Below are positions 6,130 to 56,623 of a stretch of 64,000 bases of DNA, piece after piece. A model generated the notes under the pieces. The model searched no databases. It was not told where the DNA came from and saw only the letters and a list, made by a program, of their open reading frames with translations. Within the stretch, counting starts at the first letter, position 1. The number at the start of each line of letters is the position of its first letter. Made by a program: the position numbers and the translations under genes. Location of the stretch: assembly GCA_035274425.1 (NCBI GenBank), contig DATEOC010000031.1:1995-65994 (forward strand), given 5' to 3'. The stretch comes from Chloroflexia bacterium (GTDB taxonomy: Bacteria > Chloroflexota > Chloroflexia > QHBQ01 > JADMIH01).

Positions 6130-6197
6130 AAAAAGGATAAGGGATAAAGGATAAATTATGACAGGCAGTTTTATCCTTTATCCTTTATCCTTTTTCC
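6130..6197. repeat. Hairpin of GGATAAA-type modules in the accD-accA spacer. The right arm encodes accD's last 6 codons (RIKDKG).
   Basis: aaaaaggataagggataaaggataaa ... ttatcctttatcctttatcctttttcc. The 28-mer aaggataagggataaaggataaattatg recurs at 29731. Confidence 0.6.
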
Positions 6198-7073
6198 TTC
6201 CGTAAGGTAGAGTCGTAGGAGCTTGCTGATTGTGGGCTTTAGCTCCCTGCGGGGGGATACCATATCTATCATGCCATGCTTGAGCAGGAACTCGGCGGTC
6301 TGGAAATCGGAGGGGAGCTTCTGCTTTATGGTCTGCTCGATGACGCGAGGCCCCGCGAAGCCTATCAATGCGCCCGGCTCGGCCATTACCACGTCGGCTG
6401 AGGAGGCGTAAGATGCGGTGACGCCACCCATGCAGGGATCGGTTAGCACGGAGATGTGGGGGAGGCGGGCCTCGCTGAGGGCGCTGAGGGCGGCGGTGGT
6501 CTTCGCCATCTGCATGAGGGAAAGTATACCTTCCTGCATACGCGCTCCGCCGGAGGCCGATATGGTGACGAGACCTACGCCTGTGGTTACGGCCATTTCG
6601 GCGGCACGCACCAGTTTCTCGCCATAGACCGAGCCCATGCTGCCGCCAAAGAAGCGGAAATCGCTCACCACGAGCATGGCAGGCGTGTCCTCTATGGTAG
6701 CGGGGCCGTAGACGAGCGCTTCAGGTATGCCCGCTTTTTTGGTGGTATCGTCGAGCTTGTCGGAGTAGCGCTGGCCGAGAGATACAAAGTCTATGGAGTC
6801 GACGGGTAAGATGTCCTCTCCCTCTTCATGGAAGCTTCCCGTGTCAGCGAGGTATTCGATGCGCTCGTCGGAGGAGAGGCGGAAGTGGTAGGTACATTTC
6901 TGGCAGACTTTGAGGTTGTTTTGCAACTCGCGGGTGTAGAGTAGCTCGTTGCACCTGGGGCACTTGGTCCAGATGTCCCCGGCGGCATCGCGCTCGGACT
7001 TGTCCTTTGGGTTAGCACGCGTGTCCTGGCGCTTCTCCTGACCTATTGAAAAGTAGCGCGGGCGGCGCAGCAT
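6171..7073 (-). CDS. accD: Acetyl-CoA carboxylase carboxyltransferase beta subunit with N-terminal Zn ribbon
   Basis: CPRCNELLYTRELQNNLKVCQKCTYHFR zinc finger followed by a carboxyltransferase domain. Confidence 0.9.
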   Translation of the reverse strand: MLRRPRYFSIGQEKRQDTRANPKDKSERDAAGDIWTKCPRCNELLYTRELQNNLKVCQKCTYHFRLSSDERIEYLADTGSFHEEGEDILPVDSIDFVSLGQRYSDKLDDTTKKAGIPEALVYGPATIEDTPAMLVVSDFRFFGGSMGSVYGEKLVRAAEMAVTTGVGLVTISASGGARMQEGILSLMQMAKTTAALSALSEARLPHISVLTDPCMGGVTASYASSADVVMAEPGALIGFAGPRVIEQTIKQKLPSDFQTAEFLLKHGMIDMVSPRRELKPTISKLLRLYLTEGKRIKDKG

Positions 7074-7127
7074 GAGTGTCTCCTGTATTGTTGGCCCTCG
7101 TGGGCGGGTCTATTATACCACACTCTT

Positions 7128-7220
7128 GACGACAGACGACAGACGACAGACGACAGACGACGGACGACGGACGATATTCACCGCAGAGGCGCAGAGGTTT
7201 TGGGGTGATGCGTGAGTGAG
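7128..7220. repeat. Modular repeat block in the accD 5' region: (GACGACR)n + TTCACCGCAGAGGCGCAGAGG + GTGATGCGTGAG
   Basis: gacgacagacgacagacgacagacgacggacgacggacga; the same modules recur at 23388, 27511, 50574, 52393 and 57327. Confidence 0.5.
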
Positions 7221-7590
7221 GGTAAGTTGCGGGGAGGGGCGGGACCTGCGGGCAGGGAGATAGACCTGATACCTGGCGGGTTGATGGCCGCGTGGGTAGC
7301 GCCCCTATCGTCGCAACTGGTTTGGGTTCTATGGCTGAGTGCGTAGTGGCGCTCAGGGTTATTAGCTTGTAAGGCTCTGTGGGTAAGCACAGAGGGGCTT
7401 CCATGTTCATGTGGAAGCTGTGGGATATCGTGATCCCAGGATAGGGGCACCAGCGGGTCCCTTGATAGACACCTCTGCTGCGTCACAGGGGTGGAGTATG
7501 CATCCTCTATATTAATTAATCCCCTTTCTATGCCTTTTTGGGACAGGTTTTGGGACCAATTTACCTATTTCCTAATTTTTCATTTTGTAG

Positions 7591-7619
7591 ATTGACAAAT
7601 CAAATATAGTATGATATAT
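7591..7619 (+). promoter_or_regulatory. Sigma70-like promoter candidate in an AT-rich spacer upstream of the 7757 operon
   Basis: TTGACA, 17 nt, tgaTATATT (TG-extended -10). Confidence 0.35.
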
Positions 7620-7756
7620 TATTTACAGCAGGTTCAATCCTCTTAGGAATGGCCTATCATTATAGCTTACTCGAACTGTCGTATCGTCCTAGCTATTGAG
7701 TATTCTTGCCCCTTTCTCCATATATCGAGAAGGTATTATTTCACCTCTAAACCTAT

Positions 7757-8551
7757 TTGAGAAGGTGGTATACGAGCATGAGCAAATTTAACCCTATTAT
7801 AGCGATGTTGCTGTTGCTACTCGTAGCAATAGCCCTCAGCATAACGCTGGGAATAGGTGCCTCACGCACGAACGTGGGGCAGGCTCCAGCATCGCCTGTC
7901 GTTGTAACGGCATCACCCACAGTTCCAACAGAGACTTCTGTTGTGGCTTCGCCCACCACGTTAGAGAGTACCCCGCCACCTCCGGTAGGTACTGTATCGA
8001 ATCCCCTCCCAACTACTGTGATAGGGACGAGCACGCCCTTGCCTTTACTGACCGCGACTGCTGAAGCTCTAATGACACGTATGGCCGAATATCCTCCAAT
8101 ACCAAATCTCACTCCGAACCCGCAGGAGCAAGAGCGAAGGGCTGAATTGGAGATGTTGCGGTCGTTGTACCATTTGCCTGGCACTATCACTGCGCAGGGA
8201 TCGAATACAACCCCCAGCGGCGCTTTCCAACTGAAGACGTATCGTATTGAGGAAATAGAACTGCCTGAGCCAGTCACTTTCACTGAGCTCACGATTGGCA
8301 ACATTACTGTTGACAGGGTTTGGCGTATCGTCATAACAGGAGGGCCATTTCATGTGGGGCAACAATCTCTAGTCCTATACATCGACGGCAAGCCCGTAGC
8401 GAGCGGTTACGTCAGTTCTGCCAGTGGCGATGGGGTCCAATTCATTCTGTTTGATGATGCGTTGTTGCAGGAAGGCGCTATGATAGGCGTCAGTTTGACG
8501 ATGGGCGTGCCCTTGGTCACCTTACCGGAAACACTCCACTTTCAGCCGTAA
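7757..8551 (+). CDS. Secreted hypothetical protein: N-terminal TM/signal, Pro/Thr-rich linker, C-terminal domain of unknown function
   Basis: Hydrophobic N-terminus (IIAMLLLLLVAIALSITLGIGA) followed by a P/T/S-rich stretch; 23-bp gap with RBS ggag before the next gene. Confidence 0.6.
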   Translation: MRRWYTSMSKFNPIIAMLLLLLVAIALSITLGIGASRTNVGQAPASPVVVTASPTVPTETSVVASPTTLESTPPPPVGTVSNPLPTTVIGTSTPLPLLTATAEALMTRMAEYPPIPNLTPNPQEQERRAELEMLRSLYHLPGTITAQGSNTTPSGAFQLKTYRIEEIELPEPVTFTELTIGNITVDRVWRIVITGGPFHVGQQSLVLYIDGKPVASGYVSSASGDGVQFILFDDALLQEGAMIGVSLTMGVPLVTLPETLHFQP

Positions 8552-8574
8552 TCATTTAATGGAGAAATAGAATA

Positions 8575-13617: not shown

Positions 13618-13674
13618 AGATAAAACAAAAGAGCCTTCCTTCGTTGCACGAAGGAAGGCTCTTTTGTTTTATCT
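13618..13674. terminator. Bidirectional terminator, perfect 26-bp palindrome arms
   Basis: agataaaacaaaagagccttccttcg ttgca cgaaggaaggctcttttgttttatct between convergent genes. Confidence 0.75.
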
Positions 13675-17410: not shown

Positions 17411-17438
17411 CGCGGCATAGACAACTGAATATGTGTAC

Positions 17439-17639
17439 CACAGAGGTCGCCCGAAGCACGGAAGCGAGGGCGTCAATGGGGGAAGCCGGTGTAGTCCGGC
17501 GCTGTCCCGCAACTGTAGTCCGAAAACGAGTTGAAAGTTCAAGGTTCCAGGTTCAAGGAAGACCGTACTGCCGGTAACTTTGAACGTTGAACTTTGAACC
17601 TGAAACTAATCCCGGAGAGCCAGGATACCCACCTCTGTG
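17439..17639 (+). promoter_or_regulatory. Cobalamin (AdoCbl) riboswitch aptamer
   Basis: Core GGGAAGCCGGTGTAGTCCGGCGCTGTCCCGCAACTGTA; B12 box GAGCCAGGATACCCACC; P1 cacagaggt/acctctgtg. The variable peripheral stem holds a GTTCAAGG-repeat hairpin (17529-17607). Confidence 0.8.
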
Positions 17640-17792
17640 AGACTCCAACACCTTCGCGAGAAAGGGGGATAGGAGCGATGACGCAGGCATGCACCTTGCC
17701 GCGCATACCGCCTTAGGCCAGAAGGCAGTAAGCAGAGGGCAGTAGGCAGTAACGGGTCGTCGGGACGGGGAGCGAGGCTCCCAATTATGTCA

Positions 17793-17824: not shown

Positions 17825-17890
17825 AGTGGGATGGTATGCCGTAGGAGCGTGCCGACGGCACGCCCCTACAAGACATGACAGGAGGAGAAG

Positions 17891-19009
17891 ATGAACACGA
17901 TAGGATGGAAGATTAGAAAAGCGGGTGCCGCATGGCTGGCGGCGTTGATGGTGTTTATTATGGCTGCGGGGGCGGTATCGGCTACGCCGGAGTTCCCGGA
18001 CGTTGCTAATGCCGCGCTCACGTGGATGAAGGGGCAGCAGCAGCCTGATGGGTCGTTCCCGGGCTTCGGGGCGGGGTCGTCGGTTGATGCGCTGCTCGCT
18101 TTCGTGTCGGCGCAGGATGATAAAGAGGCGGGGCACGAGGACCTGCATATGTATACCGGGGAGGGGAGCAAGCTCATCACCTTCCTTGAGAGCAAGGTCG
18201 GCGACCTGACAAAGACGCCGGGCGGCGCGGGCAAACTGCTCGTCGCAGTGGCGGGGAACAGGATGGATGGGAAGGCGTTCGGCGGGGTAGACCTGATAGG
18301 CGTGATAAATGCCTCTTACGACGCGAAGACTGGGCAGTACGGCCAGGATGTAATCGGCCATGCCTTCGCCATCCTGGGTCTTGCGGCAGCGGGTGAGGAA
18401 GTGCCCCTTCTTGCGGCCAACTTTCTCGCCGATGCGCAGGGGCCGGAGGGTGGCTGGGCCTTCTCAGGAGACACCGCTCCTGGAGCGGCTGACACCAACA
18501 CTACGGCAGTCGCGTTGCAGGCGCTCCTCGCCATGCACGTTGGCACGAGCGACCCTACGATAGATAGAGCGGGGAAATGGTTGGCGGAGCAGCAGAATGA
18601 AGATGGGGGCTTCCCTTACCAGAAGGGAGGGGAGTTCGGCAGCGACAGCGATGTGAACTCGACAGCGTATGTGGCGCAGGCGTTTACTGCCCTGGGGATG
18701 TACGACGAAGCGGGGATGGCGAAGAGCTTCATCCGCTCTATGCAACTGGAGAGCGGCGCGTTCCAGTGGATGAAGTCGGAGCCGGGCGAGAACGCGGGTG
18801 CGACCTACCAGGCGATACCCGCGCTGCTGGACGCTACGCTGGTGGCTCCGGCTGGTGTGAGCAGAGAGGGGGGTGGAGTCGTGCCGGGTGGTATGCCGAC
18901 GACGGGGCAAGGTGCTATAGGAGTGGCTATAGCGCTATCCTTGCTCGCAACGCTGGCGCTGGGCGCAGGCATCTCCATGCGGAGAACAGCTTTCTCTTCG
19001 AGAAAGTAA
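17891..19009 (+). CDS. Secreted alpha/alpha-toroid (prenyltransferase / squalene-cyclase-like repeat) protein with C-terminal TM anchor; putative cobalamin-capturing alpha-domain protein
   Basis: Signal peptide; QW-type repeats QQQPDGSFPG, PEGGWAFSGD, QQNEDGGFPYQKGG, QLESGAFQW; C-terminal hydrophobic helix plus basic tail RRTAFSSRK. Confidence 0.7.
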   Translation: MNTIGWKIRKAGAAWLAALMVFIMAAGAVSATPEFPDVANAALTWMKGQQQPDGSFPGFGAGSSVDALLAFVSAQDDKEAGHEDLHMYTGEGSKLITFLESKVGDLTKTPGGAGKLLVAVAGNRMDGKAFGGVDLIGVINASYDAKTGQYGQDVIGHAFAILGLAAAGEEVPLLAANFLADAQGPEGGWAFSGDTAPGAADTNTTAVALQALLAMHVGTSDPTIDRAGKWLAEQQNEDGGFPYQKGGEFGSDSDVNSTAYVAQAFTALGMYDEAGMAKSFIRSMQLESGAFQWMKSEPGENAGATYQAIPALLDATLVAPAGVSREGGGVVPGGMPTTGQGAIGVAIALSLLATLALGAGISMRRTAFSSRK

Positions 19010-19023
19010 TAGACAATATTAAT

Positions 19024-19071
19024 TTGAGAAATCATCAAAATCACCTTCGGTGATTTTGATGATTTCTCAAA
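19024..19071 (+). other. Perfect 22-bp stem-loop between operon genes 1 and 2 (attenuator or mRNA-stability/processing hairpin)
   Basis: ttgagaaatcatcaaaatcacc ttcg ggtgattttgatgatttctcaa. Confidence 0.6.
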
Positions 19072-19116
19072 GATAGTTTTCAAGGGTTTTATCCCGGTAT
19101 CGTGCCGGGGGCGTTT

Positions 19117-20286
19117 ATGAAACGAATTGATCGAACATTCGCATATATTTTAGGGCTAATGGCGCTGGTCGCCCTGGGGGGCGGTGCACATCTGACCTCA
19201 GCGCAGGGTGCGCAGAGCAGGGCGGGACTTGTGGTGCAGTTCGGGGACGGGAGCGTGCGAAGCTACTGCATCGCGTTCGAGAGGGAGAGCATCACCGGCT
19301 TCGACCTGCTGCTCAAGTCGGGCCTGAATGTGACAGCCGAGGGATTCGGCGGCATGGGCGGGCTGGTGTGCAAAATCGAAGCAGAGGGGTGCGATTACCC
19401 GGGTGAGGCGTGCGTGTGCAAGTCGTATGGGCCGAACGGGGTCTACTGGAGCTACCACCACCTGCGTCAAGGGAAGTGGAAGACATCTTCGATGGGAGCG
19501 GGCGGCTACCGAGTCCGCAACGGCGAGGTAGACGGTTGGGCGTGGAGCGCGGGTAAGCCACCCGTTGTGAGAACATTCGACCAGTTGTGTGGGGCTGCGC
19601 AACCGAGGCCGACTAATACGCCCGTACCTCCCACAGCTACACCTCGCCCGCAGCCGTCCAACACGCCTAAGCCACCTACGGCTACAGCCACTCGGCAACC
19701 AGCCAGGCCGACCGGTACAGCTACGGCGCGGGCAGCTACCTCGACCCCTGTAGCGGCACGACCTACGAATACGAAAGAGCCACAGGTGGTCAGGCCATCC
19801 GCAACCAAGCAAGTAATCCGGCAGGTAACACCTACACGGCAGCCACCCCTTGTCATCGCAACCTCGACGCCGAAGAAGGGCATTACATCTACATCTACAT
19901 CGATGTATACACCTACCTCTGTCCCTACAAGACGTCCGACCCAGGTGGCACCAACACCTGTGCCCACAGAGGCCAGCCCAACACGAGTGGATGCGGTCAC
20001 TCCTACAGCGAGCGCGACACAGACGACAATACCACCCACCGGGACAAATACGCCTATACCGACGCCTACAGAAACCGCCATTCAAACCCAAACCAGCACT
20101 CCGGCTGCACCACTCGCCACGAATAGCCCAACCCAAACCCCGACCCCCGACCCTCAACCCCCATCTACAGATACCGCCCGCACTATCAGTATGGTTATCG
20201 GCGCTGCCGTCATTGGCGGACTGCTGGTGTGGGGAGGGGTGACGCTGGCGACGCGGCGAGTTGGTGGGAAGAGCAGGAGAAGCTAG
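19117..20286 (+). CDS. DUF4430-like (transcobalamin/intrinsic-factor beta-domain-like) surface protein: signal peptide, globular domain, long Pro/Thr linker, C-terminal TM anchor
   Basis: GFDLLLKSGLNV ... GGLVCKIEAEG ... YWSYHHLRQGKW ... GYRVRNGEVDGWAW fits the DUF4430 pattern; about 200 aa of P/T-rich linker; terminal TM plus RRVGGKSRRS. The start may be GTG 19102. Confidence 0.65.
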   Translation: MKRIDRTFAYILGLMALVALGGGAHLTSAQGAQSRAGLVVQFGDGSVRSYCIAFERESITGFDLLLKSGLNVTAEGFGGMGGLVCKIEAEGCDYPGEACVCKSYGPNGVYWSYHHLRQGKWKTSSMGAGGYRVRNGEVDGWAWSAGKPPVVRTFDQLCGAAQPRPTNTPVPPTATPRPQPSNTPKPPTATATRQPARPTGTATARAATSTPVAARPTNTKEPQVVRPSATKQVIRQVTPTRQPPLVIATSTPKKGITSTSTSMYTPTSVPTRRPTQVAPTPVPTEASPTRVDAVTPTASATQTTIPPTGTNTPIPTPTETAIQTQTSTPAAPLATNSPTQTPTPDPQPPSTDTARTISMVIGAAVIGGLLVWGGVTLATRRVGGKSRRS

Positions 20287-21712: not shown

Positions 21713-23443
21713 ATGTCTAAGCCGATCATCTCCATCAACAATGTGACTTACCGCTACCCGGGCGGGGATGGGGCCGCGTTGCGTGATTTCTCGCTTGATG
21801 TTGAAGAGGGGGAGTTTCTGTTGGTGGCCGGGGTGTCGGGGGCGGGGAAGTCTACGTTGCTGAGATTGCTCAATGGGCTTGTGCCGCACTTCTATGGAGG
21901 TGAGGTGGCGGGAAGCGTTATGGTAGCGGGAAAGGACCCTGTGAAGTTGGGGCCTGGAGAGATGAGCGAGGTGGTCGGGCTGGTCTTCCAGGACCCGGAA
22001 GCGCAGATGGTGGCCGAGCGGGTAGAGGACGAGGTAGCGTTCGGCATGGAGAACGCGGGACTGCCTCTTGCCCTGATGCGCAAGCGAGTGGAGGAGAGCC
22101 TGCACGCCCTCAGCATCGAGCATCTGCGCGGGAGGAGGGTGAGCACGTTGTCTGGTGGAGAGAGGCAGCGCGTGGCTATCGCGTCGGTGCTGACGATGCA
22201 GCCTCGGGTGCTCGTGTTGGATGAGCCTACGTCACAGCTGGACCCACAATCAGCTGAGGAGGTGCTCGACAGCGTCGTGAGGCTGAACAAAGACCTGGGT
22301 CTGACGGTAATCATGTCGGAGCACCGGCTGGAGCGCGTTGTGCAGCACGTTGATCGCATCCTATACATGGCCCCCGGCGGCGAGACGGTGTTGGGAGAAC
22401 CCCGCGAGGTGCTATCGCAGATACCAATTGCCCCACCTCTAGTGCAGGTAGGTAAATTGCTAGGCTGGAGTCCCCTGCCGCTTAGCATCAAGGAGGCGAG
22501 AAGGTTTCTAGTAGGGGTCGGGGATCGGGGGTCGGTAATTACGAATTACGAATTACGAATTACGAATTGCGGGTTGCCGGAAGGTGAACAGGGCATGATA
22601 AATCATGCCCCTACAGAACGCTCTACCGACCCCCGGCCCCTGGCCCCCGACCCTCAATCCAAAATCGAGAATGTTTGGTTTGGGTATGGCGGGCGGGAGG
22701 TGCTACGCGATTTCAGCATGGAACTGCGGGCCGGGGAGATAACGGCGCTTATGGGGCGGAATGGGGTGGGAAAGACTACAATACTCAGGCTCATATTGGG
22801 ACTGTTGAAGCCCGCAAAGGGGAAGGTGGTTACGGAGGGATTGGATACGAGGCATACACCGTTGGAGGAGATGTCCAGGGTGGTAGGGTACGTGCCGCAG
22901 CAGCCTGACGTGTTGCTTTTTGCCGACACGGTAAGTGGAGAAATAGATTTTACGCGGCGGGCGCATAGATTGCCACCGGACGGCGCGGCCTTGCTGGAGA
23001 ACCTGGGGCTGACTCGATACCGCGAGCACGACCCCCGCGACCTGAGCGTGGGGGAGAGGCAGCGGGTGGCGCTGGCGGCGGTGCTGGCGGGGGAGCCTCG
23101 AATGCTCGTGCTGGACGAGCCTACACGTGGCCTTGATTACTTGCAGAAAGAGGCGCTCGCGGAGATACTGCGCGACTTACGCGACAAGGGGCGGACGATA
23201 GTGCTGGCGACCCACGACGTAGAGCTTGCGGCACAGATAGCTGACCGGGTTGTGCTGCTGGGAGATGGAGAGATAATAGCGGATGGTCCAGCCCGCGAGG
23301 TAATGTCAGGTACGCTCGCCTTCTCCACCCAGGTAAGTAAGCTCTTCCGCGATCCGAGGTTTGTGACGGTTGGGGACGTGGACGCTATTCACCGCAGAGA
23401 CGCAGAGAGCGCAGAGGTTTTTGGAGTGACGCATGATGCGTGA
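21713..23443 (+). CDS. Fused tandem ECF ATPase EcfA-EcfA' (two ABC domains in one 576-aa ORF)
   Basis: Walker A GVSGAGKST and GRNGVGKTT; signatures LSGGERQRV and LSVGERQRV. The ~50-aa inter-domain linker is encoded by an in-frame repeat hairpin element (22514-22670), and the second domain keeps its own RBS and ATG (22595). Confidence 0.85.
   Translation: MSKPIISINNVTYRYPGGDGAALRDFSLDVEEGEFLLVAGVSGAGKSTLLRLLNGLVPHFYGGEVAGSVMVAGKDPVKLGPGEMSEVVGLVFQDPEAQMVAERVEDEVAFGMENAGLPLALMRKRVEESLHALSIEHLRGRRVSTLSGGERQRVAIASVLTMQPRVLVLDEPTSQLDPQSAEEVLDSVVRLNKDLGLTVIMSEHRLERVVQHVDRILYMAPGGETVLGEPREVLSQIPIAPPLVQVGKLLGWSPLPLSIKEARRFLVGVGDRGSVITNYELRITNCGLPEGEQGMINHAPTERSTDPRPLAPDPQSKIENVWFGYGGREVLRDFSMELRAGEITALMGRNGVGKTTILRLILGLLKPAKGKVVTEGLDTRHTPLEEMSRVVGYVPQQPDVLLFADTVSGEIDFTRRAHRLPPDGAALLENLGLTRYREHDPRDLSVGERQRVALAAVLAGEPRMLVLDEPTRGLDYLQKEALAEILRDLRDKGRTIVLATHDVELAAQIADRVVLLGDGEIIADGPAREVMSGTLAFSTQVSKLFRDPRFVTVGDVDAIHRRDAESAEVFGVTHDA
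22514..22670. repeat. Repeat hairpin element lying in frame within the ecfA-ecfA' linker
   Basis: ggggtcggggatcgggggtcgg + (aattacg)4-5 + palindrome gggcatgataaatcatgccc + ccgacccccggcccctggcccccgaccc + ccaaaatc. Confidence 0.6.
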
Positions 23444-23565
23444 TGCGTGAGGCTTGAAACGCAAAGACGCAAAGGTGGCAAAGGGCAGGAAGATATTATG
23501 GTTGGATGCTAACAATGGATGTAGCGGTAGTAAATCCGAAATCCGAAATCCGAAATTCGAAATCG
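23388..23565. repeat. Composite module block spanning the ecfAA' C-terminus, spacer and ecfS N-terminus
   Basis: ttcaccgcagagacgcagagagcgcagagg; gtgacgcatgatgcgtgatgcgtgagg; gaaacgcaaagacgcaaaggtggcaaaggg; (aaatccg)3aaattcgaaatcg. Confidence 0.5.
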
Positions 23566-24405
23566 TCCAGGGCGATAAGCGCGGTGATTCTCGCGCTTAC
23601 AACGCTGCTTGGGATATGGGCGTTCGTTTACCCTTTCTTTATACCGCCTACCGCAGCTGGGGAAGCGCAGGCACATGCGTCGGATGCGCCCCTTATCTTT
23701 CTGCTGGTGATGGCGCTGTCGCTCGCGGCTATCGTTGCCGACCTGGAGACTCGGACGATGGACAGCAAGACCGTCGCGCTGCTGGGGGTGCTGGTGGCGA
23801 CTAATTCGCTGCTGAGGCCGTTGCAGGGGCCTGGGGGGTTCTCGGTATTCCTTGTGCTGCCGATGCTGTGCGGGTATGTCTTCGGGGGGCGATTCGGGTT
23901 CCTGATGGGGTCGCTGTCGGTGCTGGTGTCGGCCCTCTTCACGGGCGGGGTCGGGCCGTGGATGCCGTTCCAGATGCTGGCTATTGGGTGGGTGGGGTTG
24001 CTATCGGCAGCATTACCTCAGAAGATTATGTCAAGCATATGGGGAGGGAGAGCTGAGAAATGGGCACTTGCGGGGTGGGGCGTCGTGATGGGGTTGCTGC
24101 TTGGGGCGGTGCTGAACCTATGGTTCTGGCCCTATATCAGCCAGAACGCGGACCTGCCAGCCAGCCAGCTATGGCAGCCGGGGGCGGGGTTGATAGAGGC
24201 TCTGCAACGCTATGGTGCGTTCTATCTGGCAACCTCCCTCCCCTTCGACATCTGGCGTGCTGCCGGAAACGCTCTCTTCCTGTTGGTGCTGGGGCCGCCA
24301 GTGCTGAGGCTGCTCAGGAGGTATAAGCAGCGCTTTTTCTTCGTTGAGCTTGATAGATTTAATCACAAAGAACACAAAGACACGAAGAACACAAAGGATG
24401 ATTAG
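23506..24405 (+). CDS. ECF transporter substrate-specific (S) component candidate, putatively cobalamin-specific (CbrT-like role)
   Basis: Small ~6-TM membrane protein last in the ECF operon. The first 20 and last 15 codons are repeat-encoded, and the true start may be GTG 23583. Confidence 0.55.
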   Translation: MLTMDVAVVNPKSEIRNSKSSRAISAVILALTTLLGIWAFVYPFFIPPTAAGEAQAHASDAPLIFLLVMALSLAAIVADLETRTMDSKTVALLGVLVATNSLLRPLQGPGGFSVFLVLPMLCGYVFGGRFGFLMGSLSVLVSALFTGGVGPWMPFQMLAIGWVGLLSAALPQKIMSSIWGGRAEKWALAGWGVVMGLLLGAVLNLWFWPYISQNADLPASQLWQPGAGLIEALQRYGAFYLATSLPFDIWRAAGNALFLLVLGPPVLRLLRRYKQRFFFVELDRFNHKEHKDTKNTKDD

Positions 24406-24501
24406 GGTTTAATATCCGAGGAGCAATATCTGTATCCCCTATAATAAACCCATAATAATCTTTGTGGCCTTTGTGTCTTTGTGCTCTTTGTGATTAAATC
24501 T
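24355..24501. repeat. Near-perfect 43-bp inverted arms of CACAAAG heptamers around an AT-rich 60-bp loop; the left arm encodes the ecfS C-terminus
   Basis: agatttaatcacaaagaacacaaagacacgaagaacacaaagg ... ctttgtggcctttgtgtctttgtgctctttgtgattaaatct. Confidence 0.7.
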
Positions 24502-29805: not shown

Positions 29806-29893
29806 TAGGGATTTAGGGTCGGGGGTCGGAGATTGAATGATAAGAGTTCATAGTGCCGTCTGACCCCCGACCCCCGACCCCTAATCCCTAATC
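29806..29893. repeat. Hairpin of TAGGGAT and CCGACCCC modules overlapping the lldD-like gene's stop
   Basis: gggattagtgactagggatttagggtcgggggtcgg ... ccgacccccgacccctaatccctaatc. Confidence 0.6.
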
Positions 29894-32781: not shown

Positions 32782-33124
32782 TAGACAGGAGTATAGAGAC
32801 CTGCCCGCCTGGCGGAAGGCGATGGACCTGGGCGTACATGTCTACAAAATAGTACGAAAATGGCCTGAAGAAGAGCACGACGTGCTGACAGAAGATACCC
32901 TGCGCTCCACCATGTTTATCGCCACCAATATCAAGATGGGACACGACTCGGACTCCCTAAGCGAATTGTTCGATCACCTGGATGTAGCAAGGGGCAAGCT
33001 GGGGAGACTGCAATCGCTGTTGATTTTGGCGCAGCAATTAGGCTATTATTCATTAGAAGAATATGAAGAGCTTGCTGATGAGATAGACGAAGTCAGAGTG
33101 CTCATAGACAGCATGGTCCGTTAG
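32771..33124 (+). CDS. Four-helix-bundle protein (TIGR02436-like)
   Basis: DLPAWRKAMDLGVHVYKIVRKWPEEEHDVLTEDTLRSTMFIATNIKMGH pattern; overlaps the upstream gene by 11 nt. Confidence 0.65.
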   Translation: MMDNRQEYRDLPAWRKAMDLGVHVYKIVRKWPEEEHDVLTEDTLRSTMFIATNIKMGHDSDSLSELFDHLDVARGKLGRLQSLLILAQQLGYYSLEEYEELADEIDEVRVLIDSMVR

Positions 33125-41977: not shown

Positions 41978-42283
41978 CTAATAAAATAGGGATCGTAGGA
42001 GCCATACCAATGCCACGCCTCCCACCACTGCCAGCAGGAAGTTGCGAGTGCGCACGGCAACCAGCGCAGTCGCCAGCACCGACACCGCTTCGGCGGGGCC
42101 ACTCGTCAGGGCAGTAGGGGCTATCAGCGAGACCAGCACCGCACCCGGTATGTGCTTGAGCCACGCTTCAATGCGGGGTGTGGAGGCGATATGGCCCATA
42201 AGCCACAGGCCTCCCGCACGCGTCAGGTAGGTGACGAGCGCCATACCGAGTATAGTCAGGATAGCAGTGGGGTCAGCCTGCAT
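41978..42283 (-). CDS. azlD: Branched-chain amino acid exporter small subunit AzlD
   Basis: ~100-aa 3-TM protein overlapping azlC by 11 nt. Confidence 0.8.
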   Translation of the reverse strand: MQADPTAILTILGMALVTYLTRAGGLWLMGHIASTPRIEAWLKHIPGAVLVSLIAPTALTSGPAEAVSVLATALVAVRTRNFLLAVVGGVALVWLLRSLFY

Positions 42284-42983
42284 CTCTGAGTGCTCCCACC
42301 ACGCTGCCCGCTATGCCGCCTGCCAGTATGTACCACGTGCCCGGCAGCCACCATTTGGCTACTACCGCCACCAGCGCGGCGACTCCCCATGGGAGGAGGT
42401 CGGACTTGCCGCGCCACATCCCCGCGAGGAGAGCTGTGAAGACCGCCGCGAACATGAAATCGAGACCCCACCGCACCAGGTCTTCCTGACGCAAGGCAGA
42501 CCCAGCAACCGTGCCGGCTACAGTGCCGCCTACCCAGCCAGTGAATAGGGTCAGGCCGCTCCCAAGGATGAAGGCAGCGTCACGCTCACCTTCCCTGTAC
42601 TCCTTGATGGAGAGCGCCCAGGTTTCGTCGGTCATGAAGAAGATGGAGCCGTAAACTTTAGACGCGGGGAGCTTGGAGAGCCAGGGGCGTAGCGCCGCGC
42701 CCATCAGGACGTGCCGCAGGTTCACGATGAGAGTGGTGAAGATAATGGTGAATATGGGGAGAGGGCTTATCCATAACTGCAAAGCGATAAACTGCGCCGC
42801 GCCCGCGAAGACCAGCCCACTCATCATCGCAGCCTCTACCAGAGTCAAGCCTGACTGACGAGCCAGCACCCCGAACACCGCCGCGAAGGCCGTGGCACTC
42901 ACTGCCAGTGGCAGGGTACGCCTCACGCCGAGCAATAGCCCGGCGCGAGCGAATGTTGGCTTATCTTCAGGAGTGGGGTTCAA
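42273..42983 (-). CDS. azlC: Branched-chain amino acid exporter AzlC
   Basis: AzlC-family membrane protein (GSIFFMTDETWALSI). The start codon appears to be TTG, embedded in the repeat hairpin's left arm. Confidence 0.8.
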   Translation of the reverse strand: MNPTPEDKPTFARAGLLLGVRRTLPLAVSATAFAAVFGVLARQSGLTLVEAAMMSGLVFAGAAQFIALQLWISPLPIFTIIFTTLIVNLRHVLMGAALRPWLSKLPASKVYGSIFFMTDETWALSIKEYREGERDAAFILGSGLTLFTGWVGGTVAGTVAGSALRQEDLVRWGLDFMFAAVFTALLAGMWRGKSDLLPWGVAALVAVVAKWWLPGTWYILAGGIAGSVVGALRDAG

Positions 42984-43073
42984 AGTTCAAGGTTCAAAGT
43001 TCAAGGTTCAAGGTTCAAGGTCTTAATTGGTCCCCTATTCGTGGTTAGACCTTGAACTTTGAACTTTGAACTC
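42978..43073. repeat. GTTCAAGG/GTTCAAAG module hairpin between the ClbS-like gene and azlC
   Basis: ggttcaaagttcaaggttcaaagttcaaggttcaaggttcaaggtc ... gaccttgaactttgaactttgaactc. Confidence 0.7.
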
Positions 43074-48113: not shown

Positions 48114-49493
48114 TCATCCATGAGGTAGGAACATTCTTAGCCACTTAGCCAACAGACCTTCACGCTCCTCCGCAACGTTGGAACGGCGCAGCTGAGGACC
48201 CGTTCCAGGTGAGGCAACGCTGCCCGCATTCTCCTTCGCTCCCCACAGGATGAGACCGACGCTGGTGGCGTACATAGGGCTGTCGAAAGCGTCTGTAAGG
48301 CCGCCTATCTGGCGAGGGCGACCTACGCGTGCTGGCATCCGCAACTTGCGAGATGCCACGGAAGCGATGTTCGGCATGGAGGCGACTCCACCCGTCAGCA
48401 CTACACCTGCGGGAAGCATACCATCATAGCCACTCCGGCGTATCTCGTCGCCCACGAGGCCGAAGAGCTGGTCCAGGCGCGCTGCCATAACTGCGTTTAG
48501 CTCGTCACGTGGTATGCGGCTCGGCTTGCCCTCGAAGGTCTGGGTCTCGAGCATCTCGGAGTGCGGAGTGCGGAGTGCGGAGTGCGGAATTTCCGTGCTG
48601 CCTTCTGCGTGACCGTTAGACTCGATGCGCCGTCCGGCACTCTGTGTATGAGCTTTGACTTGGGCGGGTTGGGGCTTGGGGGCTTGCATTTCCGAGGGAG
48701 TCTGAGCTTCGCCGTATTGTAGCTTCAGCGCCTCCGCAGCGTCGAACGGGATGTTGAAGACGAGCACGAGGTCGTTGGTGAGCTGCCAGCCCCCTACCGG
48801 GATTATGCGGCTGTGCCACACCGACCCCTCCACGTAGATGGAGATGTCGGTGGTGCCATGCCCGATGTCTACGAGAGCCACGCCCAAGTTCTTCTCCTGC
48901 TCGGTCAGAGTGGCCTCCGCCGAAGCGAAAGGAGATAGCACCAGGTCGTCCACCTCTACATCGGCCTTCTGCACGCAGCGTATGAGGTTCTCGCGGACGT
49001 TGCTGCCGCCCGTCACAACGTGGGTCTCGACGTCGAGGCGAAAGCCCGAAAGGCCGAGAGGGTTGCGTATCCCCTCCTGCCCATCTACGGTGTAGGTGCG
49101 CGGGATGACGTGGAGCACATCGCGCCCTGCCGGGATCGCCATAGCGCGCGCCGCGTCTACGGCACGAGCAACGTCGTCCTGGCCTATGATGCGCTCAGGG
49201 TGGGACACCGCGACCAGGCCGCGGCTGTTGGTGGAGGAGACGTGGTTCCCGGAGATGGAGACGTAGGCCGACAGGATGCGGCAGCCGGACTGGCGCTCGG
49301 CTGCGTCGAGAGACGAGCCTATAGCGTTGCTGGCCTTCACGATGTCGGTAATCATCCCCTTCGCCACTCCCTCCGAAGCTACGGCTCCAACGCCCAAGAC
49401 GTTGAGCCTGTTGGGACCCGAGTCCGATTCCGCTACGACAGTGCATATTTTGTGCGTGCCGACATCAATGCCGACAATGATCTTGGTGGGCAT
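48114..49493 (-). CDS. ftsA: Cell-division protein FtsA (actin-like ATPase) with low-complexity insertion
   Basis: MPTKIIVGIDVGTHKICTVVAE; insertion ...IPHSALRTPHSEMLE... encoded by (ggagtgcgg)3 at 48555-48585. Confidence 0.9.
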   Translation of the reverse strand: MPTKIIVGIDVGTHKICTVVAESDSGPNRLNVLGVGAVASEGVAKGMITDIVKASNAIGSSLDAAERQSGCRILSAYVSISGNHVSSTNSRGLVAVSHPERIIGQDDVARAVDAARAMAIPAGRDVLHVIPRTYTVDGQEGIRNPLGLSGFRLDVETHVVTGGSNVRENLIRCVQKADVEVDDLVLSPFASAEATLTEQEKNLGVALVDIGHGTTDISIYVEGSVWHSRIIPVGGWQLTNDLVLVFNIPFDAAEALKLQYGEAQTPSEMQAPKPQPAQVKAHTQSAGRRIESNGHAEGSTEIPHSALRTPHSEMLETQTFEGKPSRIPRDELNAVMAARLDQLFGLVGDEIRRSGYDGMLPAGVVLTGGVASMPNIASVASRKLRMPARVGRPRQIGGLTDAFDSPMYATSVGLILWGAKENAGSVASPGTGPQLRRSNVAEEREGLLAKWLRMFLPHG

Positions 49494-49777: not shown

Positions 49778-50563
49778 TTAGCGGAGGATGCTTGGGCGCT
49801 CGACGGAGCGTACGTCTAGCACGCTCCAGGGTTGGTTGCGGGTGTAGTAATCGCGGACAACGGCCTGCACCAGCTTCATCTTCTGGTCGAGTTTCTCGCC
49901 GGTACCGAACTCGATGCGCCCGCCCGTTACGGTGATCGCGGTGATGCCGTTGTTGGGTGCCCACTCCATCTGCCGTAGATCGATGCCTGCGGCGGCGGGG
50001 AGGGTCAGATAAATCTGCTGGGCGGTGTCGGAGGCGTCGGCTTTGTGGACGGGCATCGGCTCGCCTATCTTCAGAGCGTCGGTCATTGGCCCCCTGTCGA
50101 AGATAGTAACGAAGCCATCGAGCGTGGTTGCCTGGCCCACCACTACATGATCGTCGCTCGCCAGCAAGGGTGTGCCGTCTCCGATGACCCACACGGTAGC
50201 GGGGCGGCGCTCCTGGACGTGGATGATGACATGATTGGGCAGGAGCGTCTCTACCGTTACCCCTTTGAGGAGAGCAGCCTTCTCCGCCAGGCGCGCCTGC
50301 ACCTCGGAGGGGACGATGGTGAAGATATTCTGCCCCTGGACGCCCGCTATGGCGTTGGCCTGCTCGACGCTCAGCACTTTGCTCCCCACCACCGACACCG
50401 ATTGCACGATGTACTCAGGTGAGGTGGCAAACGACACGGCAGCCGCAGTCAGGAAAGCCAGCCCGACGAGGGCGAAGAAGCTCCCGCGCCGGATGTCCTC
50501 GTTGAAGAGCCGCCAGCCGGCCTTGCGATTTTGGATTTTGGATTTTGGATTTTGGATTTCCAT
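49778..50563 (-). CDS. ftsQ: FtsQ/DivIB (POTRA domain) cell-division protein
   Basis: Single TM plus POTRA (EYIVQSVSVVGSKVLS); N-terminal MEIQNPKSKIQNRK is encoded by the (ccaaaat)n repeat. Confidence 0.8.
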   Translation of the reverse strand: MEIQNPKSKIQNRKAGWRLFNEDIRRGSFFALVGLAFLTAAAVSFATSPEYIVQSVSVVGSKVLSVEQANAIAGVQGQNIFTIVPSEVQARLAEKAALLKGVTVETLLPNHVIIHVQERRPATVWVIGDGTPLLASDDHVVVGQATTLDGFVTIFDRGPMTDALKIGEPMPVHKADASDTAQQIYLTLPAAAGIDLRQMEWAPNNGITAITVTGGRIEFGTGEKLDQKMKLVQAVVRDYYTRNQPWSVLDVRSVERPSILR

Positions 50564-52262: not shown

Positions 52263-52392
52263 CTCTATCTAACTCGCGTGTGCGGATTGGGCGGGAGATT
52301 TGCCCACAACCAGCCCCAATATTATATCGCACAGGCTCTGGGAAGCTAACCATACCTTACGCTTCACAGCTAGAGGAGGTTTTCCACAACCT

Positions 52393-52623
52393 GACGACGG
52401 ACGACGGAGTGATACGTGATACGTGATGCGTGAACGTTTAACCGCCAAGACGCCAAGAGCGCCAAGATACCGCCAAGATTTTTATGGATTAATAGATTAA
52501 GTTGCCTATCGTCTATCGTCTATCGTCCCTCATCACGTTTCACGTTTCGCGTATCATACCGTTGTCCGTTGTCCGTTGTCCGTTGTCCGTTGTCCGTTGT
52601 CCGTTGTCCGTCGTCTGTCGTCC
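52393..52623. repeat. Large composite hairpin: (GACGACG)n-(GTGATACGTGA)n-(CGCCAAGA)4 ... rc(GATAGAC)3-rc(GTGAAACGTGA)-(CCGTTGT)7-(CGTCGTCTGTCGTCC)
   Basis: Left arm 52393-52436, right arm 52505-52623; divergent-promoter region between the cupin and DUF2382 genes. Confidence 0.7.
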
Positions 52624-52696
52624 TTCGGTGCTATCTGGCACGAAAGCTGCTCTATGGGATTTGCCGAATTGAACACCATAGAGATAGGGGACAGGC

Positions 52697-53218: not shown

Positions 53219-53316
53219 TACTTTTGTAGGTTTGTGCCGGGACCACTTCTGTGGAGGGCGCGGTTGCGGCGCGGATCGAAAATGGTCAAATCTTTATATC
53301 ACAACGATGAAAGGAC

Positions 53317-54117: not shown

Positions 54118-54139
54118 CCTCTTCACAATCAAGAATTTT

Positions 54140-54178
54140 CTTACCAAAATGAGCGCCGCTGGCGCTCATTTTGGTAAA
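54140..54178. terminator. Bidirectional terminator
   Basis: cttaccaaaatgagcgcc gct ggcgctcattttggtaaag. Confidence 0.7.
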
Positions 54179-54187
54179 GGAAGACTT

Positions 54188-55180
54188 TTAGAAATCCCCA
54201 ATGAACTCGATCTCAGGCTCAAGCTCTATGCCGAACTGCTCTTTGACGCGGGCGCGAGCGAGGTCCATCAGGTGGCGCACGTCTGAGGCGGTGGCCCCGC
54301 CCAGGTTCATCATGAAGTTGGCGTGCTTGGGGGAGAACTGCGCCTGCCCATACCTCTCTCCCTTGAGGCCGGCCTGCTCTATGAGGTAGCCTGCGGATGA
54401 GCCCGGGGGGTTCTTGAAGGTGGAGCCTGCACTCTTGCCCTGGGGCTGCTTGGCCTGCCGCTCCTCAAGGTATGAGCGCATCCTGGCGTCGCACTCGCCT
54501 TGCGTGTCGCGGTGGAGGGTAATGTCGGCGCTTAATATCACTTCAGGAGGTGAGAGAGTACGGTTGCCGTGCGCTTTGAAGATGCTCGTGCGATAGCCGA
54601 GTTGCAACTTCTCGGTGGGCCACTCTTCTTTAACTCCATCGCGGGTGAGAACCTGGATGGAGACCATGTCATCCTTTAGCTCTTTGCCGTGCGCCCCGGC
54701 GTTGCTCACCACGCCGCCGCCGACGCTGCCGGGAACGCTGTTTGACCACTCCAACCCCGTCCACCCTTGCTGGCAGGTGAGGCGAGACAGCTTGCTGAAA
54801 AGCACCCCAGAATCGACACGCCACAGGCTCGTGCCGCCCTGACGCTCCTCGTGGGAGATGCCCTGCGACTTGTTGTGGATCACAAGTCCATTTATGCCGT
54901 AATCAGCGACGAGCATGTTCGTGCCATTGCCTATAACGAGGTAGGGTATATCGCTCTCCCTGGCGAAGAGTACAGACGCTACTAACTCCTCGGTGGTCGT
55001 TGCGGTGACGAATAGGGTAGCAGGGCCACCGATACGTAGCGAGTTGTGCTTACTCATCAACTCGTCTCGCGTCACCTTGAGACCAGTGGCCTCTTCAAGC
55101 TCGGCAGCCACGTCAGGTTGGAAGGTGATGGCGGCGCGCCTGGCGCTTGCTTGATTGTTTTTATTATTTGCCTGGTCCAT
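54188..55180 (-). CDS. murB: UDP-N-acetylenolpyruvoylglucosamine reductase
   Basis: FAD-binding LRIGGPATLFV; C-terminal GSTFKNP. Confidence 0.9.
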   Translation of the reverse strand: MDQANNKNNQASARRAAITFQPDVAAELEEATGLKVTRDELMSKHNSLRIGGPATLFVTATTTEELVASVLFARESDIPYLVIGNGTNMLVADYGINGLVIHNKSQGISHEERQGGTSLWRVDSGVLFSKLSRLTCQQGWTGLEWSNSVPGSVGGGVVSNAGAHGKELKDDMVSIQVLTRDGVKEEWPTEKLQLGYRTSIFKAHGNRTLSPPEVILSADITLHRDTQGECDARMRSYLEERQAKQPQGKSAGSTFKNPPGSSAGYLIEQAGLKGERYGQAQFSPKHANFMMNLGGATASDVRHLMDLARARVKEQFGIELEPEIEFIGDF

Positions 55181-55189
55181 ATCTGTATC

Positions 55190-56623
55190 TTATGGGATAT
55201 GTAAACTCTCTAGTATTGCCTCTCCCACTTTCCACACGTCGCCAGCACCCATCGTCAGCAGCACGTCGCCGGGACGCAGCTCGTCAAGCAAGGTGTTTGT
55301 AGCATCTTCCAGGGTTGGGACGAATGTGGCATTTTCTCCTGGCATTTTCTCGACGATGTGGCGGCCACTCATGCCGAGGGTGTCGCGCTCGCGGGAAGCG
55401 TAGATTTCGGTGACTAATATGTGGTCTGCGGCGCTCAAAGAGGATGCGAAGTCGTCCAGAAAGTCGCGGGTGCGGGTGTATGTGTGAGGTTGGAACAGGA
55501 CGACCAGGCGGTTGGAGGGGTAACGCTGGCGTGCGGCCTGCAATGTGGCGTCTATCTCCGTGGGGTGGTGGGCGTAGTCATCCACGACGGTGATGCCTTT
55601 GACCTCGCCCTTGACCTCGAAGCGACGACCCGCACCTACAAAATCGCCAAGCAATCGCGCCGCATCTTCAGCGGGCACACCCACTTCGACGCAAGCAGCT
55701 AACGCCGCGAGTGAGTTGAGGGCGTTATGCTTTCCAGGTATCTGTAAGGATACCCTGGTCAATTCCTCCCTATCTCGGAACGCTATATAGCTCGTACCAC
55801 CTTGCTCATTCGCCTCTATATTGCGCGCCTGCCAGGCTGAAGCGCCGTTTGTCCCATAAAATGGAGTCCTGTAGGGGAGGTCGCCATCAGCGCTGTGAGC
55901 AAATATAAGCCCTTCCAGGATGGCTCTGACGCCGTAAGCGTCATCGCAGAGTAACAATAGGCCCCCAGGGCGCACACTCAGAGCAAACTGCAAGAATGCC
56001 TGGTGGATAGCTAGATGGCTGCCGTAATACTCAAGATGGTCGCTCTCGACATTGGTGATGACGGCCACGTCGGGGCGCAGGTGGAGGAAAGAGCGGTCAT
56101 ACTCGTCCGCCTCTGCCACAAGCTCTTCGCCGGAACCCCAGTGCCCCCCCGGCCCCAACCCTCGAATGGTCCCACCGATCATGTACGAGGGGTCGCGTCC
56201 GGCTTTCGATAATATCCAGGCGATCATCGATGAGGTGGTGGTCTTGCCGTGCGTGCCTGCCACCGCGATGCCGCGTCGCAGGTCCATAAGCTCCCCAAGG
56301 AGGGCGGCGCGCTTTATGACGGGTATGCCACGCTCGTGGGCCGTAACAAGCTCAGGGTTATCGTCGGAGAGGGCGGCAGTCACTACCACGCGAGTAGCGT
56401 CGCCCAGGTTGTCCGCGCTATGCCCGATGTGGATGCGCGCACCACGCGCCTCAAGCTCCTCGGTAGCATCGGAAGCCGCCATGTCGGACCCCGAAACGGA
56501 CGCGCCCAGGTCAAGCAATGCAGAAGCAAGAGCGCTCATACCCGCTCCACCAATGCCGATGAAATGCCACGATTCCGAATTTTGAATTTTGAATTTTGAA
56601 TTTTGAATTTTGGGTGTGGTCAT
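55190..56623 (-). CDS. murC: UDP-N-acetylmuramate--L-alanine ligase
   Basis: HFIGIGGAGMSALA; GTHGKTTTSSMI. Its N-terminal MTTPKIQNSKFKIQNSE is encoded by the (gaatttt)n repeat. Confidence 0.9.
   Translation of the reverse strand: MTTPKIQNSKFKIQNSESWHFIGIGGAGMSALASALLDLGASVSGSDMAASDATEELEARGARIHIGHSADNLGDATRVVVTAALSDDNPELVTAHERGIPVIKRAALLGELMDLRRGIAVAGTHGKTTTSSMIAWILSKAGRDPSYMIGGTIRGLGPGGHWGSGEELVAEADEYDRSFLHLRPDVAVITNVESDHLEYYGSHLAIHQAFLQFALSVRPGGLLLLCDDAYGVRAILEGLIFAHSADGDLPYRTPFYGTNGASAWQARNIEANEQGGTSYIAFRDREELTRVSLQIPGKHNALNSLAALAACVEVGVPAEDAARLLGDFVGAGRRFEVKGEVKGITVVDDYAHHPTEIDATLQAARQRYPSNRLVVLFQPHTYTRTRDFLDDFASSLSAADHILVTEIYASRERDTLGMSGRHIVEKMPGENATFVPTLEDATNTLLDELRPGDVLLTMGAGDVWKVGEAILESLHIP

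Follow-up and report, generated by a model that had tools for sequence, protein, structure and literature searches.

The window analysed here is a stretch of 64,000 nucleotides with 57% GC from a Chloroflexia bacterium (contig DATEOC010000031.1), which equals bases 1980-65979 of the metagenome contig ERZ27257050:k141_509755 (141,853 bp) in ENA. The NCBI entries for its proteins (HKP52117, HKP52118, HKP52147 and HKP52153) are headed "MAG TPA: ... [Chloroflexia bacterium]". Tandem arrays of 7-nt units (heptamers) are spread over the window, and this work deals mainly with those that run into the ends, linkers and insertions of genes. Eight such genes had been pointed out in an earlier note made from the sequence alone, and their identities are backed by Pfam and NCBIfam: accD (TIGR00515, 367 bits), ftsQ (POTRA_1), murC (TIGR01082, 501 bits), ftsA (TIGR01174, 394 bits), ecfS (the S component of an energy-coupling factor, ECF, transporter), ecfAA' (a fused ECF ATPase), a gene for a TM-GGDEF-TM-HD-GYP protein (TM, transmembrane segment) and an lldD-like gene, which encodes an FMN-dependent 2-hydroxy-acid dehydrogenase.

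Tandem Repeats Finder (TRF) gave 85 rows, which were reduced to 48 curated arrays by merging overlapping rows and removing other periods; 39 of the 48 have a period of 7. An independent scan of the window found 30 period-7 arrays (975 bp) against 0-1 (about 0.4) in shuffled sequence, and periods 8-12 showed no excess over the shuffles. More than 20 distinct heptamer units are present (e.g. AAAATCC, GACGACG, AAGTTCA), and no array exceeds 65 nt. About 30 of the 48 arrays are intergenic, although the window is ~87% coding (~13% non-coding), and at ddl, DinB and hyp207 an array begins exactly at the stop codon. The intragenic ones lie at most 30 nt from a terminus or in linkers and insertions, with none in a domain core. 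All nine coding arrays without a stop encode hydrophilic heptads (Kyte-Doolittle -0.4 to -2.2); read in antisense, the A-rich ones would give a hydrophobic peptide (ILDFGFW, +1.3). The arrays are also restricted to certain lineages. Of 166 loci fetched, 135 are array-free, the relatives of the window carry 4.7-7 arrays per 10 kb, and among these loci the period-7 excess is seen in the lineage of the window and a few others. The features are collected in Table 1.

Table 1. Arrays, partner arms and hairpins of the window, with folding energy and z-score where computed
Feature	Position	Strand	Encoded peptide or context	Energy (kcal/mol)	z
(CCAAAAT)4.1 array, GGDEF-HD-GYP gene	3514..3542	+	PQNPKSKIQNQ, hypervariable linker		
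Inverted partner arm of the accD array (TTTATCC on gene strand)	6132..6155	-	accD-accA spacer		
(GGATAAA) arm, accD	6170..6199	-	C-terminal RIKDKG + stop TAA; spacer hairpin ends in TTTTT	-32.1	-6.9
Cobalamin riboswitch RF00174 (62.4 bits)	17427-17650	+	upstream of the ECF operon		
Inverted heptamer pair in the riboswitch	17537-17558; 17576-17607	+	GTTCAAG; AACTTTG; variable insertion		
(CCCCGAC)3.6 array, hyp389	20138-20162	+	PRPPTPD, near C-terminus		
(GGGGTCG)3, (AATTACG)4.6 and (CCGGCCC)4 arrays, ecfAA'	22514..22653	+	inter-domain linker; VITNYELRITNCG; ...GVGDRGSVITNYELRITNCG...		
TTCACCGCAGAG + (CGCAGAGN)3 + (GTGATGC)3.6 module, ecfAA' 3' end	23388..23450	+	last ~18 residues + stop codon		
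(AAATCCG)4.7 array, ecfS	23532..23564	+	N-terminal tail, NPKSEIRNSKS		
(CACAAAGA/A) 8/9-nt array, ecfS	24364..24396	+	C-terminal tail, HKEHKDTKNTK; 5' arm of hairpin	-70	-13.5
Inverted partner arm (TCTTTGTG)	24459..24492	+	downstream of ecfS		
(GATTAGG)2.1, lldD-like gene	29879..29893	-	last 3-4 codons + stop; marginal		
Inverted (AAGTTCA)...(TTGAACC)	42977..43072	-	fills DinB-azlC spacer	-37	-5.7
(CACTCCG)4.6 array, ftsA	48557..48588	-	IPHSALRTPHSE; C-terminal end of ~41-aa lineage-specific loop insertion		
Degenerate 8-nt repeat, ftsA	48659..48686	-	QAPKPQPAQ, near start of the insertion		
(CAAAATC)4.7 array, ftsQ	50527..50559	-	codons 2-12, EIQNPKSKIQN; no inverted partner	-27	-0.9
Nested composite of six arrays	52393..52623		cupin-DUF2382 spacer		
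(AAAATTC)5.1 array, murC	56577..56612	-	codons 5-16, KIQNSKFKIQNS; 3' hairpin arm; pair encloses start codon	-32.5	-2.3
Inverted partner arm (GAATTTT/GAATTCT)	56659..56691	-	hyp207-murC spacer, directly after hyp207 stop		
(GACGACG)n ... (CAGTCCT)n ... (CGTCGTC)n	57327..57443	-	ftsW-hyp207 spacer, purely intergenic	-78	-8.9
Hairpin	62.8 kb			-51	-6.6

All eight coding overlaps named in the earlier note exist, and each peptide can be read from the DNA. MurC starts MTTPKIQNSKFKIQNSE and FtsQ starts MEIQNPKSKIQNRK, EcfS is repeat-encoded at both its N-terminus (NPKSEIRNSKSS) and its C-terminus (HKEHKDTKNTKDD), EcfAA' ends in IHRRDAESAEVFGVTHDA and AccD in ...GKRIKDKG, whose TAA stop is part of (GGATAAA)n, and PQNPKSKIQNQ lies in the linker of the GGDEF protein. 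Two entries required amendment. The FtsA segment IPHSALRTPHSE is repeat-encoded as proposed, but its unit is the heptamer CGGAGTG (x4.6) and not a 9-mer, (GGAGTGCGG)3; in the lldD-like gene the overlap is present but weak, with 2.1 copies and 13 nt (KIRD*). Coding arrays missing from that list were found in the EcfAA' linker (three) and in hyp389, a hypothetical gene of the ECF operon, and the degenerate 8-nt repeat of the ftsA insertion had not been named either.

Comparison with orthologues was based on close relatives obtained by protein searches and contig look-ups. The nearest are L085 (JGI 3300044812, 410 kb), syntenic and with about 87-91% nucleotide identity to the window, and L084 (ENA ERZ25039588 contig_28982, 620 kb), with about 85-90% and frameshift errors. 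In the latter, ftsA, ddl, murD and ftsQ each consist of two separate open reading frames (ORFs), probably owing to long-read indel errors and not because they are pseudogenes, and only its array sequences, not its gene lengths, were used. MurC was compared in L169 (JGI 3300066659, 76%), L170 (ENA ERZ1760152, 65%) and L171 (NCBI GCA_036399775.1, 67%). Other JGI contigs supplied accD (L166, 86%; L172, 86%) and ecfS (L167, 85%; L168, 94%), L166 and L167 being on one 23-kb contig. Relatives on genome contigs found through Ddl (at most 64% identity) served for phylum placement, the FtsA comparison and the lineage census, and not for copy number. The lengths of the short coding arrays were taken directly from the alignments.

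In murC the array sets in 11 nt past the start codon, and the TIGR01082 match begins at residue 19; the WHFIGIGGAGMS motif directly after the array is at least 90% invariant in 19 MurC orthologues. Upstream, the ATG at 56623 is the sole canonical start in frame; it precedes the array, and an in-frame stop is found 12 codons further up. NCBI PGAP calls this long form (477 aa, 55190-56623, minus strand). On the other hand, the Prodigal call in ENA starts at the internal M29 (449 aa) and loses HFIGIGGAG, the nucleotide-binding (GxGxxG) motif. In all six genomes compared (65-89% identity) an A-rich array precedes WHF, and in five of them an in-frame ATG lies upstream of it; the called start in L171 is a TTG. 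The units at this site are AAAATTC, AAAACTC, AAAATCC, AAATCCG and AAAATCT, and they have therefore changed in concert. In L084 and L170, unlike in L085, the partner arm in the hyp207-murC spacer has changed along with the coding arm. One MurC homologue (P0007) is exactly 7 aa shorter, that is, 3 units (21 nt), and more distant MurC proteins read MDLSTHHWHF and have no array. The gene also differs in its organization: many relatives at 64-71% identity (P0008-P0013 and others; L171, 8339-10804) carry a fused murC-murB of ~790-830 aa, whereas in the window murC and murB are separate, 9 nt apart.

In ftsQ the array begins 4 nt past the start codon, and no ATG, GTG or TTG lies between it and the invariant KAGWRLFNEDIRRGSFF-TM segment. 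Its length is equal in the window, L085 and L084, and also in L169, where the array has decayed (MIVQTSKPKTQNHK); the ftsQ of L171 has no array. In L085 the ATG of the window reads ATC, and a new in-frame ATG is found 9 nt upstream. Within the FtsQ cluster at ≥90% identity, the tail is the sole variable part.

Neither solved structures of FtsA (7q6g) nor 11 other FtsA proteins of Chloroflexota have the ~41-aa insertion. At the array in it, the window and L085 share the unit ACTCCGC (TPHSALR), L169 has AATCCGC (NPQSAIR) and L084 has AATCCAA (NPKSKIQ). The insertion measures 149, 149, 152 and 164 nt, so that the differences are 0, +3 and +15 nt and the frame is kept. The change of unit consists of stepwise substitutions spread over all the units in concert. 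A wholesale exchange of the array for an unrelated one was considered and rejected, as L169 supplies the intermediate unit AATCCGC. The insertion in L169 (ftsA at 17853-19259) also holds RRTTDDGRPTT, the heptad of a (GACGACG) unit that is purely intergenic in the window, and therefore a second type of array entered that loop.

The ECF operon comprises a prenyltransferase-like gene, hyp389, ecfT, ecfAA' and ecfS, and upstream of it lies a cobalamin riboswitch whose variable insertion is itself occupied by an inverted heptamer pair. The N-terminal array of ecfS begins 17-26 nt past the start codon, and the conserved (A)LS.(V/I)IL.LTTLLG of EcfS follows right after it. No ATG, GTG or TTG is found between the array and the conserved residues; the first possible start (GTG) lies inside them. 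The array has equal length whether the unit is AAATCCG (window, L168) or AAAATTC (L167), and the N-tail, hypervariable over 120 homologues, is in many of them encoded by heptads (e.g. MVTNPKSKIQNPKSS, MVNPQSAIRNPQSALS). At the other end, the EcfS core closes with RRYKQRFFF. A TAA precedes the (CACAAAGA) array in L167 (FFAVKV*), in the window the frame continues into the array (299 aa), and in L168 and P0514 it goes on through the loop of the hairpin (313 aa). Four different C-tails occur among EcfS proteins of ≥90% identity.

EcfAA' relatives align only up to residue 557-561 of 576 (those from a scan of metagenome contigs, at ≤70% identity, were used for the alignment of the C-tail and the linker only), and the tail of the window is missing in L167, L168 and L086-L090. 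The protein ends with DAIHRRDAESAEVFGVTHDA in the window (20 aa), with VVRGR in L168, where the stop lies inside a different (GACGATA) array, and with VRGMNG* in L167. The three linker arrays make up a 19-aa insertion in comparison with L167. They were also considered as the cause of the ecfA-ecfA' fusion. This was rejected: every relative has the fusion, also where the linker carries no arrays, and it is ancestral.

In most of 120 AccD homologues the core ends in ...KLLRLY plus 1-4 residues. The window has LTEGKRIKDKG*, L166 ERKKAKG* and L172 LT* (after the LY of the core); immediately past the L172 stop, an inverted pair of unrelated units, (AGTTCAA)/(TTGAACT), takes up the whole spacer as far as the ATG of accA. 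The C-terminal tails of EcfS, EcfAA' and AccD are set by the position of the first in-frame stop in or near an array. The two-module GGDEF-HD-GYP architecture is widespread, its linker (about residues 400-495) is hypervariable, and none of the 11 closest representatives, among them the closest homologue found (59% identity), has the QNPKSKIQNQ insertion.

The behaviour of coding and intergenic arrays between relatives is different. Between the window and L085, several differences are seen in the spacers: the left arm of the ftsW-hyp207 spacer is 3 units shorter, the arms of the DUF2382-cupin spacer differ by about 6 units gained or lost, the ddl-ftsQ spacer is about 23 nt longer, and the cupin-ddl spacer carries the unit family GGGGTCG/CCCCGAC versus AAGTTCA/TGAACTT. 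In the same pair, the murC, ftsQ and ftsA arrays have identical lengths. Between relatives in general, coding arrays either agree in length or deviate by a multiple of 3 nt, and no out-of-frame (OFF) allele of a coding array was seen among the compared orthologues. Inverted arms, moreover, change jointly: GACGACG/CGTCGTC in the window and L085 has become GACGAAA/TTTCGTC in L084.

Many arrays are in fact inverted pairs with arms of tandem heptamers that fold into long hairpins (Table 1). Intrinsic terminators have a short G+C-rich stem, a loop of 3-8 nt and then a T tract, and a terminator scan of the window flagged no array hairpin. The terminator-like sites at 5058-5102, 13624-13668 and 19024-19070 are unique palindromes not built from heptamers; being long, perfect and provided with T tracts, they look like real, partly bidirectional terminators. 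Rfam gave a single match, the riboswitch, and no family matching the array modules. The sole sequence that recurs among sites is a composite module, TTCACCGCAGAG + (CGCAGAGN)2-3 + TTTTTGG + (GTGATGC or complement)n, present in five exact copies (7177, 21418, 23388, 27593 on the minus strand, and 50573) against 0.38 expected; the other units are site-specific. In L169 this module stands in the ftsW-hyp207 spacer, where the window has other arrays. Its dispersal suggests mobility or recombination between spacers.

Two observations on other genes can be added. The DinB-azlC arrays adjoin the stop codon of DinB and extend over the called start of azlC (42273-42983, minus strand), a TTG inside the (TTGAACC) array (42977-43021), and this start is doubtful. 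At 32822-33124 (plus strand), a free-standing gene for a protein of the 23S rRNA intervening-sequence family (PF05635) lies between aminotransferase and DUF433 genes.

Taken as a whole, these data are best explained by arrays of 7-nt units endemic in this lineage, similar to the STRRs (short tandemly repeated repetitive elements) of cyanobacteria, which have been absorbed into neighbouring genes or have come to end them under the filter of selection, and we consider this highly probable. Arrays would arise or expand at gene boundaries and then either be absorbed into the adjoining ORF or replace its stop codon. Since 7 and 3 share no factor, a heptamer array passes through the three frames one after another and gives the same 7-residue periodic peptide from any entry frame, and a unit without a stop on the gene strand is therefore open in every frame; a unit carrying a stop would close any ORF within seven codons. 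Selection would let pass only peripheral or disordered positions, hydrophilic orientations and frame-keeping lengths, and concerted turnover of the units would continue, probably through slippage or conversion. The alignments show that the repeat-encoded residues are lineage-specific additions at permissive positions (termini, inter-domain linkers and the FtsA loop), and the arrays are very probably translated into short, hydrophilic tails. Most likely these residues are tolerated passengers and not functional parts of the proteins, and any function of the arrays is probably exercised at the level of nucleic acid, as intercistronic hairpins.

The earlier note had left two options, namely that the annotated starts and stops are wrong or that the repeats add short low-complexity tails and linkers whose copy number may alter protein termini, and had suggested orthologue alignment to decide. 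In the alignments the repeat-encoded residues are missing in orthologues or replaced there by a different array, which supports the second option, and tails differ between close relatives, as in the 7-aa shorter MurC and the four C-tails of EcfS. The first, by which the true starts would lie downstream and the arrays would be untranslated leaders or trailers, is very improbable. It would agree with the Prodigal call of murC at M29, which bypasses the array, with callers that begin some ECF-S homologues inside TM1, with the doubtful azlC start and with the weak Shine-Dalgarno motifs near the upstream ATGs. However, the M29 start removes HFIGIGGAG, in murC, as in ftsQ and ecfS, no ATG, GTG or TTG leads from the array to the conserved residues, relatives keep an upstream in-frame ATG (even the displaced one of ftsQ in L085 is in frame), and PGAP gives the long forms. 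For murC, ftsQ and ecfS this option is thus rejected, and the stops are independent of annotation and set by the sequence itself. It is hardly any likelier that the arrays are contingency loci in which slippage by one unit toggles genes or grades their expression. Their place just past start codons recalls neuO (PMC13001214), and intergenic arrays of the same type do vary in copy number between relatives. Nevertheless, the coding arrays have few units (4-5, compared with 3-53 in neuO), they do not differ in length between 3-4 genomes or within clusters at ≥90% identity while nearby intergenic arrays vary, and no out-of-frame allele was seen. The genes murC, ftsQ, ftsA and accD are essential in model bacteria, and an OFF state would be lethal for that reason. 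Mis-assembly or chimerism in the metagenome contig is the least credible possibility: the source is a short-read metagenome (k141 contig), and repeats are a classic cause of such errors, but the arrays reach at most 65 nt, and the same arrays stand at the same sites in independent assemblies from JGI (3300044812, 3300066659, 3300077141 and 3300004643), ENA (ERZ25039588 and ERZ1760152) and NCBI (GCA_036399775.1).

Selection for a function of the arrays at coding ends, beyond tolerance, is unlikely, yet deserves more weight than those options. Candidate functions would be an A-rich, weakly structured 5' coding end that favours initiation, a start-enclosing hairpin that regulates or stabilises the mRNA, and Lys-rich cytoplasmic tails that aid the topology of FtsQ and EcfS. 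Several findings point in this direction and may weigh against mere tolerance: the A-rich array persists at the 5' end of murC in all six genomes, all N-terminal arrays are A-rich (AAAWYYS type) and G+C-rich units are confined to spacers or linkers, the upstream arm of murC has changed along with the coding arm in L084 and L170, and the tails of FtsQ and EcfS are K/R-rich ahead of a TM helix. It must also be counted against absorption that Shine-Dalgarno motifs are weak near the ATGs of murC and ftsQ, that rare ATT or ATC starts are conceivable within some arrays (there is none in the murC array of L085) and that the sequence is a metagenome consensus. Against selected function, the peptides differ radically between close relatives (PHSALRT, NPQSAIR, NPKSKIQ), arrays decay while the gene stays (ftsQ in L169), distant orthologues have none, the murC hairpin is weak (z -2.3) and uncompensated in L085, and ftsQ has no partner arm. 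A related and somewhat bolder idea, which we regard as speculative and rather doubtful, is that the arrays do not come from passive slippage and that a lineage-specific process writes and homogenises inverted heptamer pairs at cistron boundaries as co-evolving RNA/DNA elements, with rewritten termini, linkers and loops, even of essential proteins, as the by-product; de novo coding sequence would then be supplied steadily and irrespective of frame. Two findings point to active writing: the cupin-ddl and accD-accA spacers carry unrelated unit families in close relatives, always as an inverted pair, and the composite TTCACCGCAGAG module is dispersed across loci.

Under the absorption reading, the window offers a natural example of non-triplet microsatellites turning into coding sequence, given that a 7-nt array can be absorbed into any adjoining ORF because it is open in three frames at once. 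The relatives show the limits that selection sets, namely peripheral positions, hydrophilic orientation and frame-keeping length, while the peptide is free for concerted rewriting. There are practical consequences as well. Gene callers misplace starts at arrays, and one pipeline cut the nucleotide-binding motif from MurC; protein-family boundaries in these Chloroflexia will be noisy, and repeat heptads such as KIQNPKS will cause spurious similarity between unrelated proteins. If the arrays were actively generated hairpin elements, they would represent a new kind of intercistronic element together with a mechanism that remodels protein termini.

Concerning known systems, heptameric simple sequence repeats are enriched in some bacteria but scarcer than expected in coding regions, according to Mrazek (2007) as cited in PMC4692102. 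Among the closest precedents are the cyanobacterial STRRs and the heptameric long simple sequence repeats (LSSRs) (PMC4692102, PMC4679880), which also consist of tandem 7-nt units, with several families per genome and a lineage-restricted distribution. Like the arrays of the window, STRRs are mostly intergenic, lie near ORF ends and occasionally form inverted pairs. STRRs were reportedly found inside cyanobacterial RNase P RNA by Vioque in 1997, which parallels the arrays inside the cobalamin riboswitch. The arrays of the window fit the STRR/LSSR class in all the structural features tested. Unlike in the STRR and Xanthomonas cases, the host is an uncultured member of Chloroflexia and the units are different and not of the G4 type; a cyanobacterial host is excluded by the presence of FtsA, the closest proteins and the NCBI record. 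Furthermore, inverted pairing is the rule in the window, composite multi-array modules occur, and the invasion of essential gene ends is backed by orthologues.

Marine Beggiatoaceae, cyanobacteria and Bacteroidetes carry heptamer repeats of the unit TAACTGA (MacGregor 2015, PMC4679880), which overlap the stop codons of upstream genes and encode residues at the extreme start of a corrinoid ABC permease and the extreme end of MurG. These repeats share with the window the overlap with stops and a coding role restricted to the periphery, outside conserved domains. However, TAACTGA is a single unit with stops in all frames of one orientation, found mostly directly upstream of starts and unpaired, and the TRF list of the window contains no TAACTGA array. 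The window has dozens of unit types, inverted pairs, insertions in linkers and loops, and comparative evidence of frame constraint and concerted evolution. In neuO of the Escherichia coli K1 prophage CUS-3, a 5' coding (AAGACTC)n array yields the full-length product only when the copy number is divisible by 3 (PMC13001214). In both cases a heptamer array stands directly past the start codon and is frame-dependent; the heptad is translated in neuO, and its translation is likely in the window. With 3-53 copies, hypervariability and many OFF alleles, neuO is a phase switch of a non-essential surface modification; the arrays of the window have 4-5 copies, do not vary in length in the essential genes and showed no OFF allele, and so lack its hypervariability.

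A further comparison concerns the repetitive extragenic palindromic (REP) sequences and bacterial interspersed mosaic elements (BIMEs) of enterobacteria, which are intercistronic palindromes with a shared consensus, associated with a REP-associated tyrosine transposase (RAYT, IS200-like). As in REP/BIME, stable hairpins occupy short spacers of co-oriented operon genes in the window (accD-accA, ftsW-hyp207-murC), and by this analogy they could plausibly act on the stability or processing of mRNA. On the other hand, the window hairpins have no shared consensus, their units vary by site and relative, their arms are tandem heptamers and not a unique palindrome, and no RAYT-like transposase was found among the called genes of the window. 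Literature searches found no report of heptanucleotide repeats in Chloroflexi. The phenomenon is thus known in outline from other bacteria and unusually well documented in the lineage of the window. What is new is its occurrence in Chloroflexia, the prevalence of inverted pairs and composite modules, and the comparative evidence that arrays inside murC, ftsQ and ftsA persist, keep the frame and change in concert.

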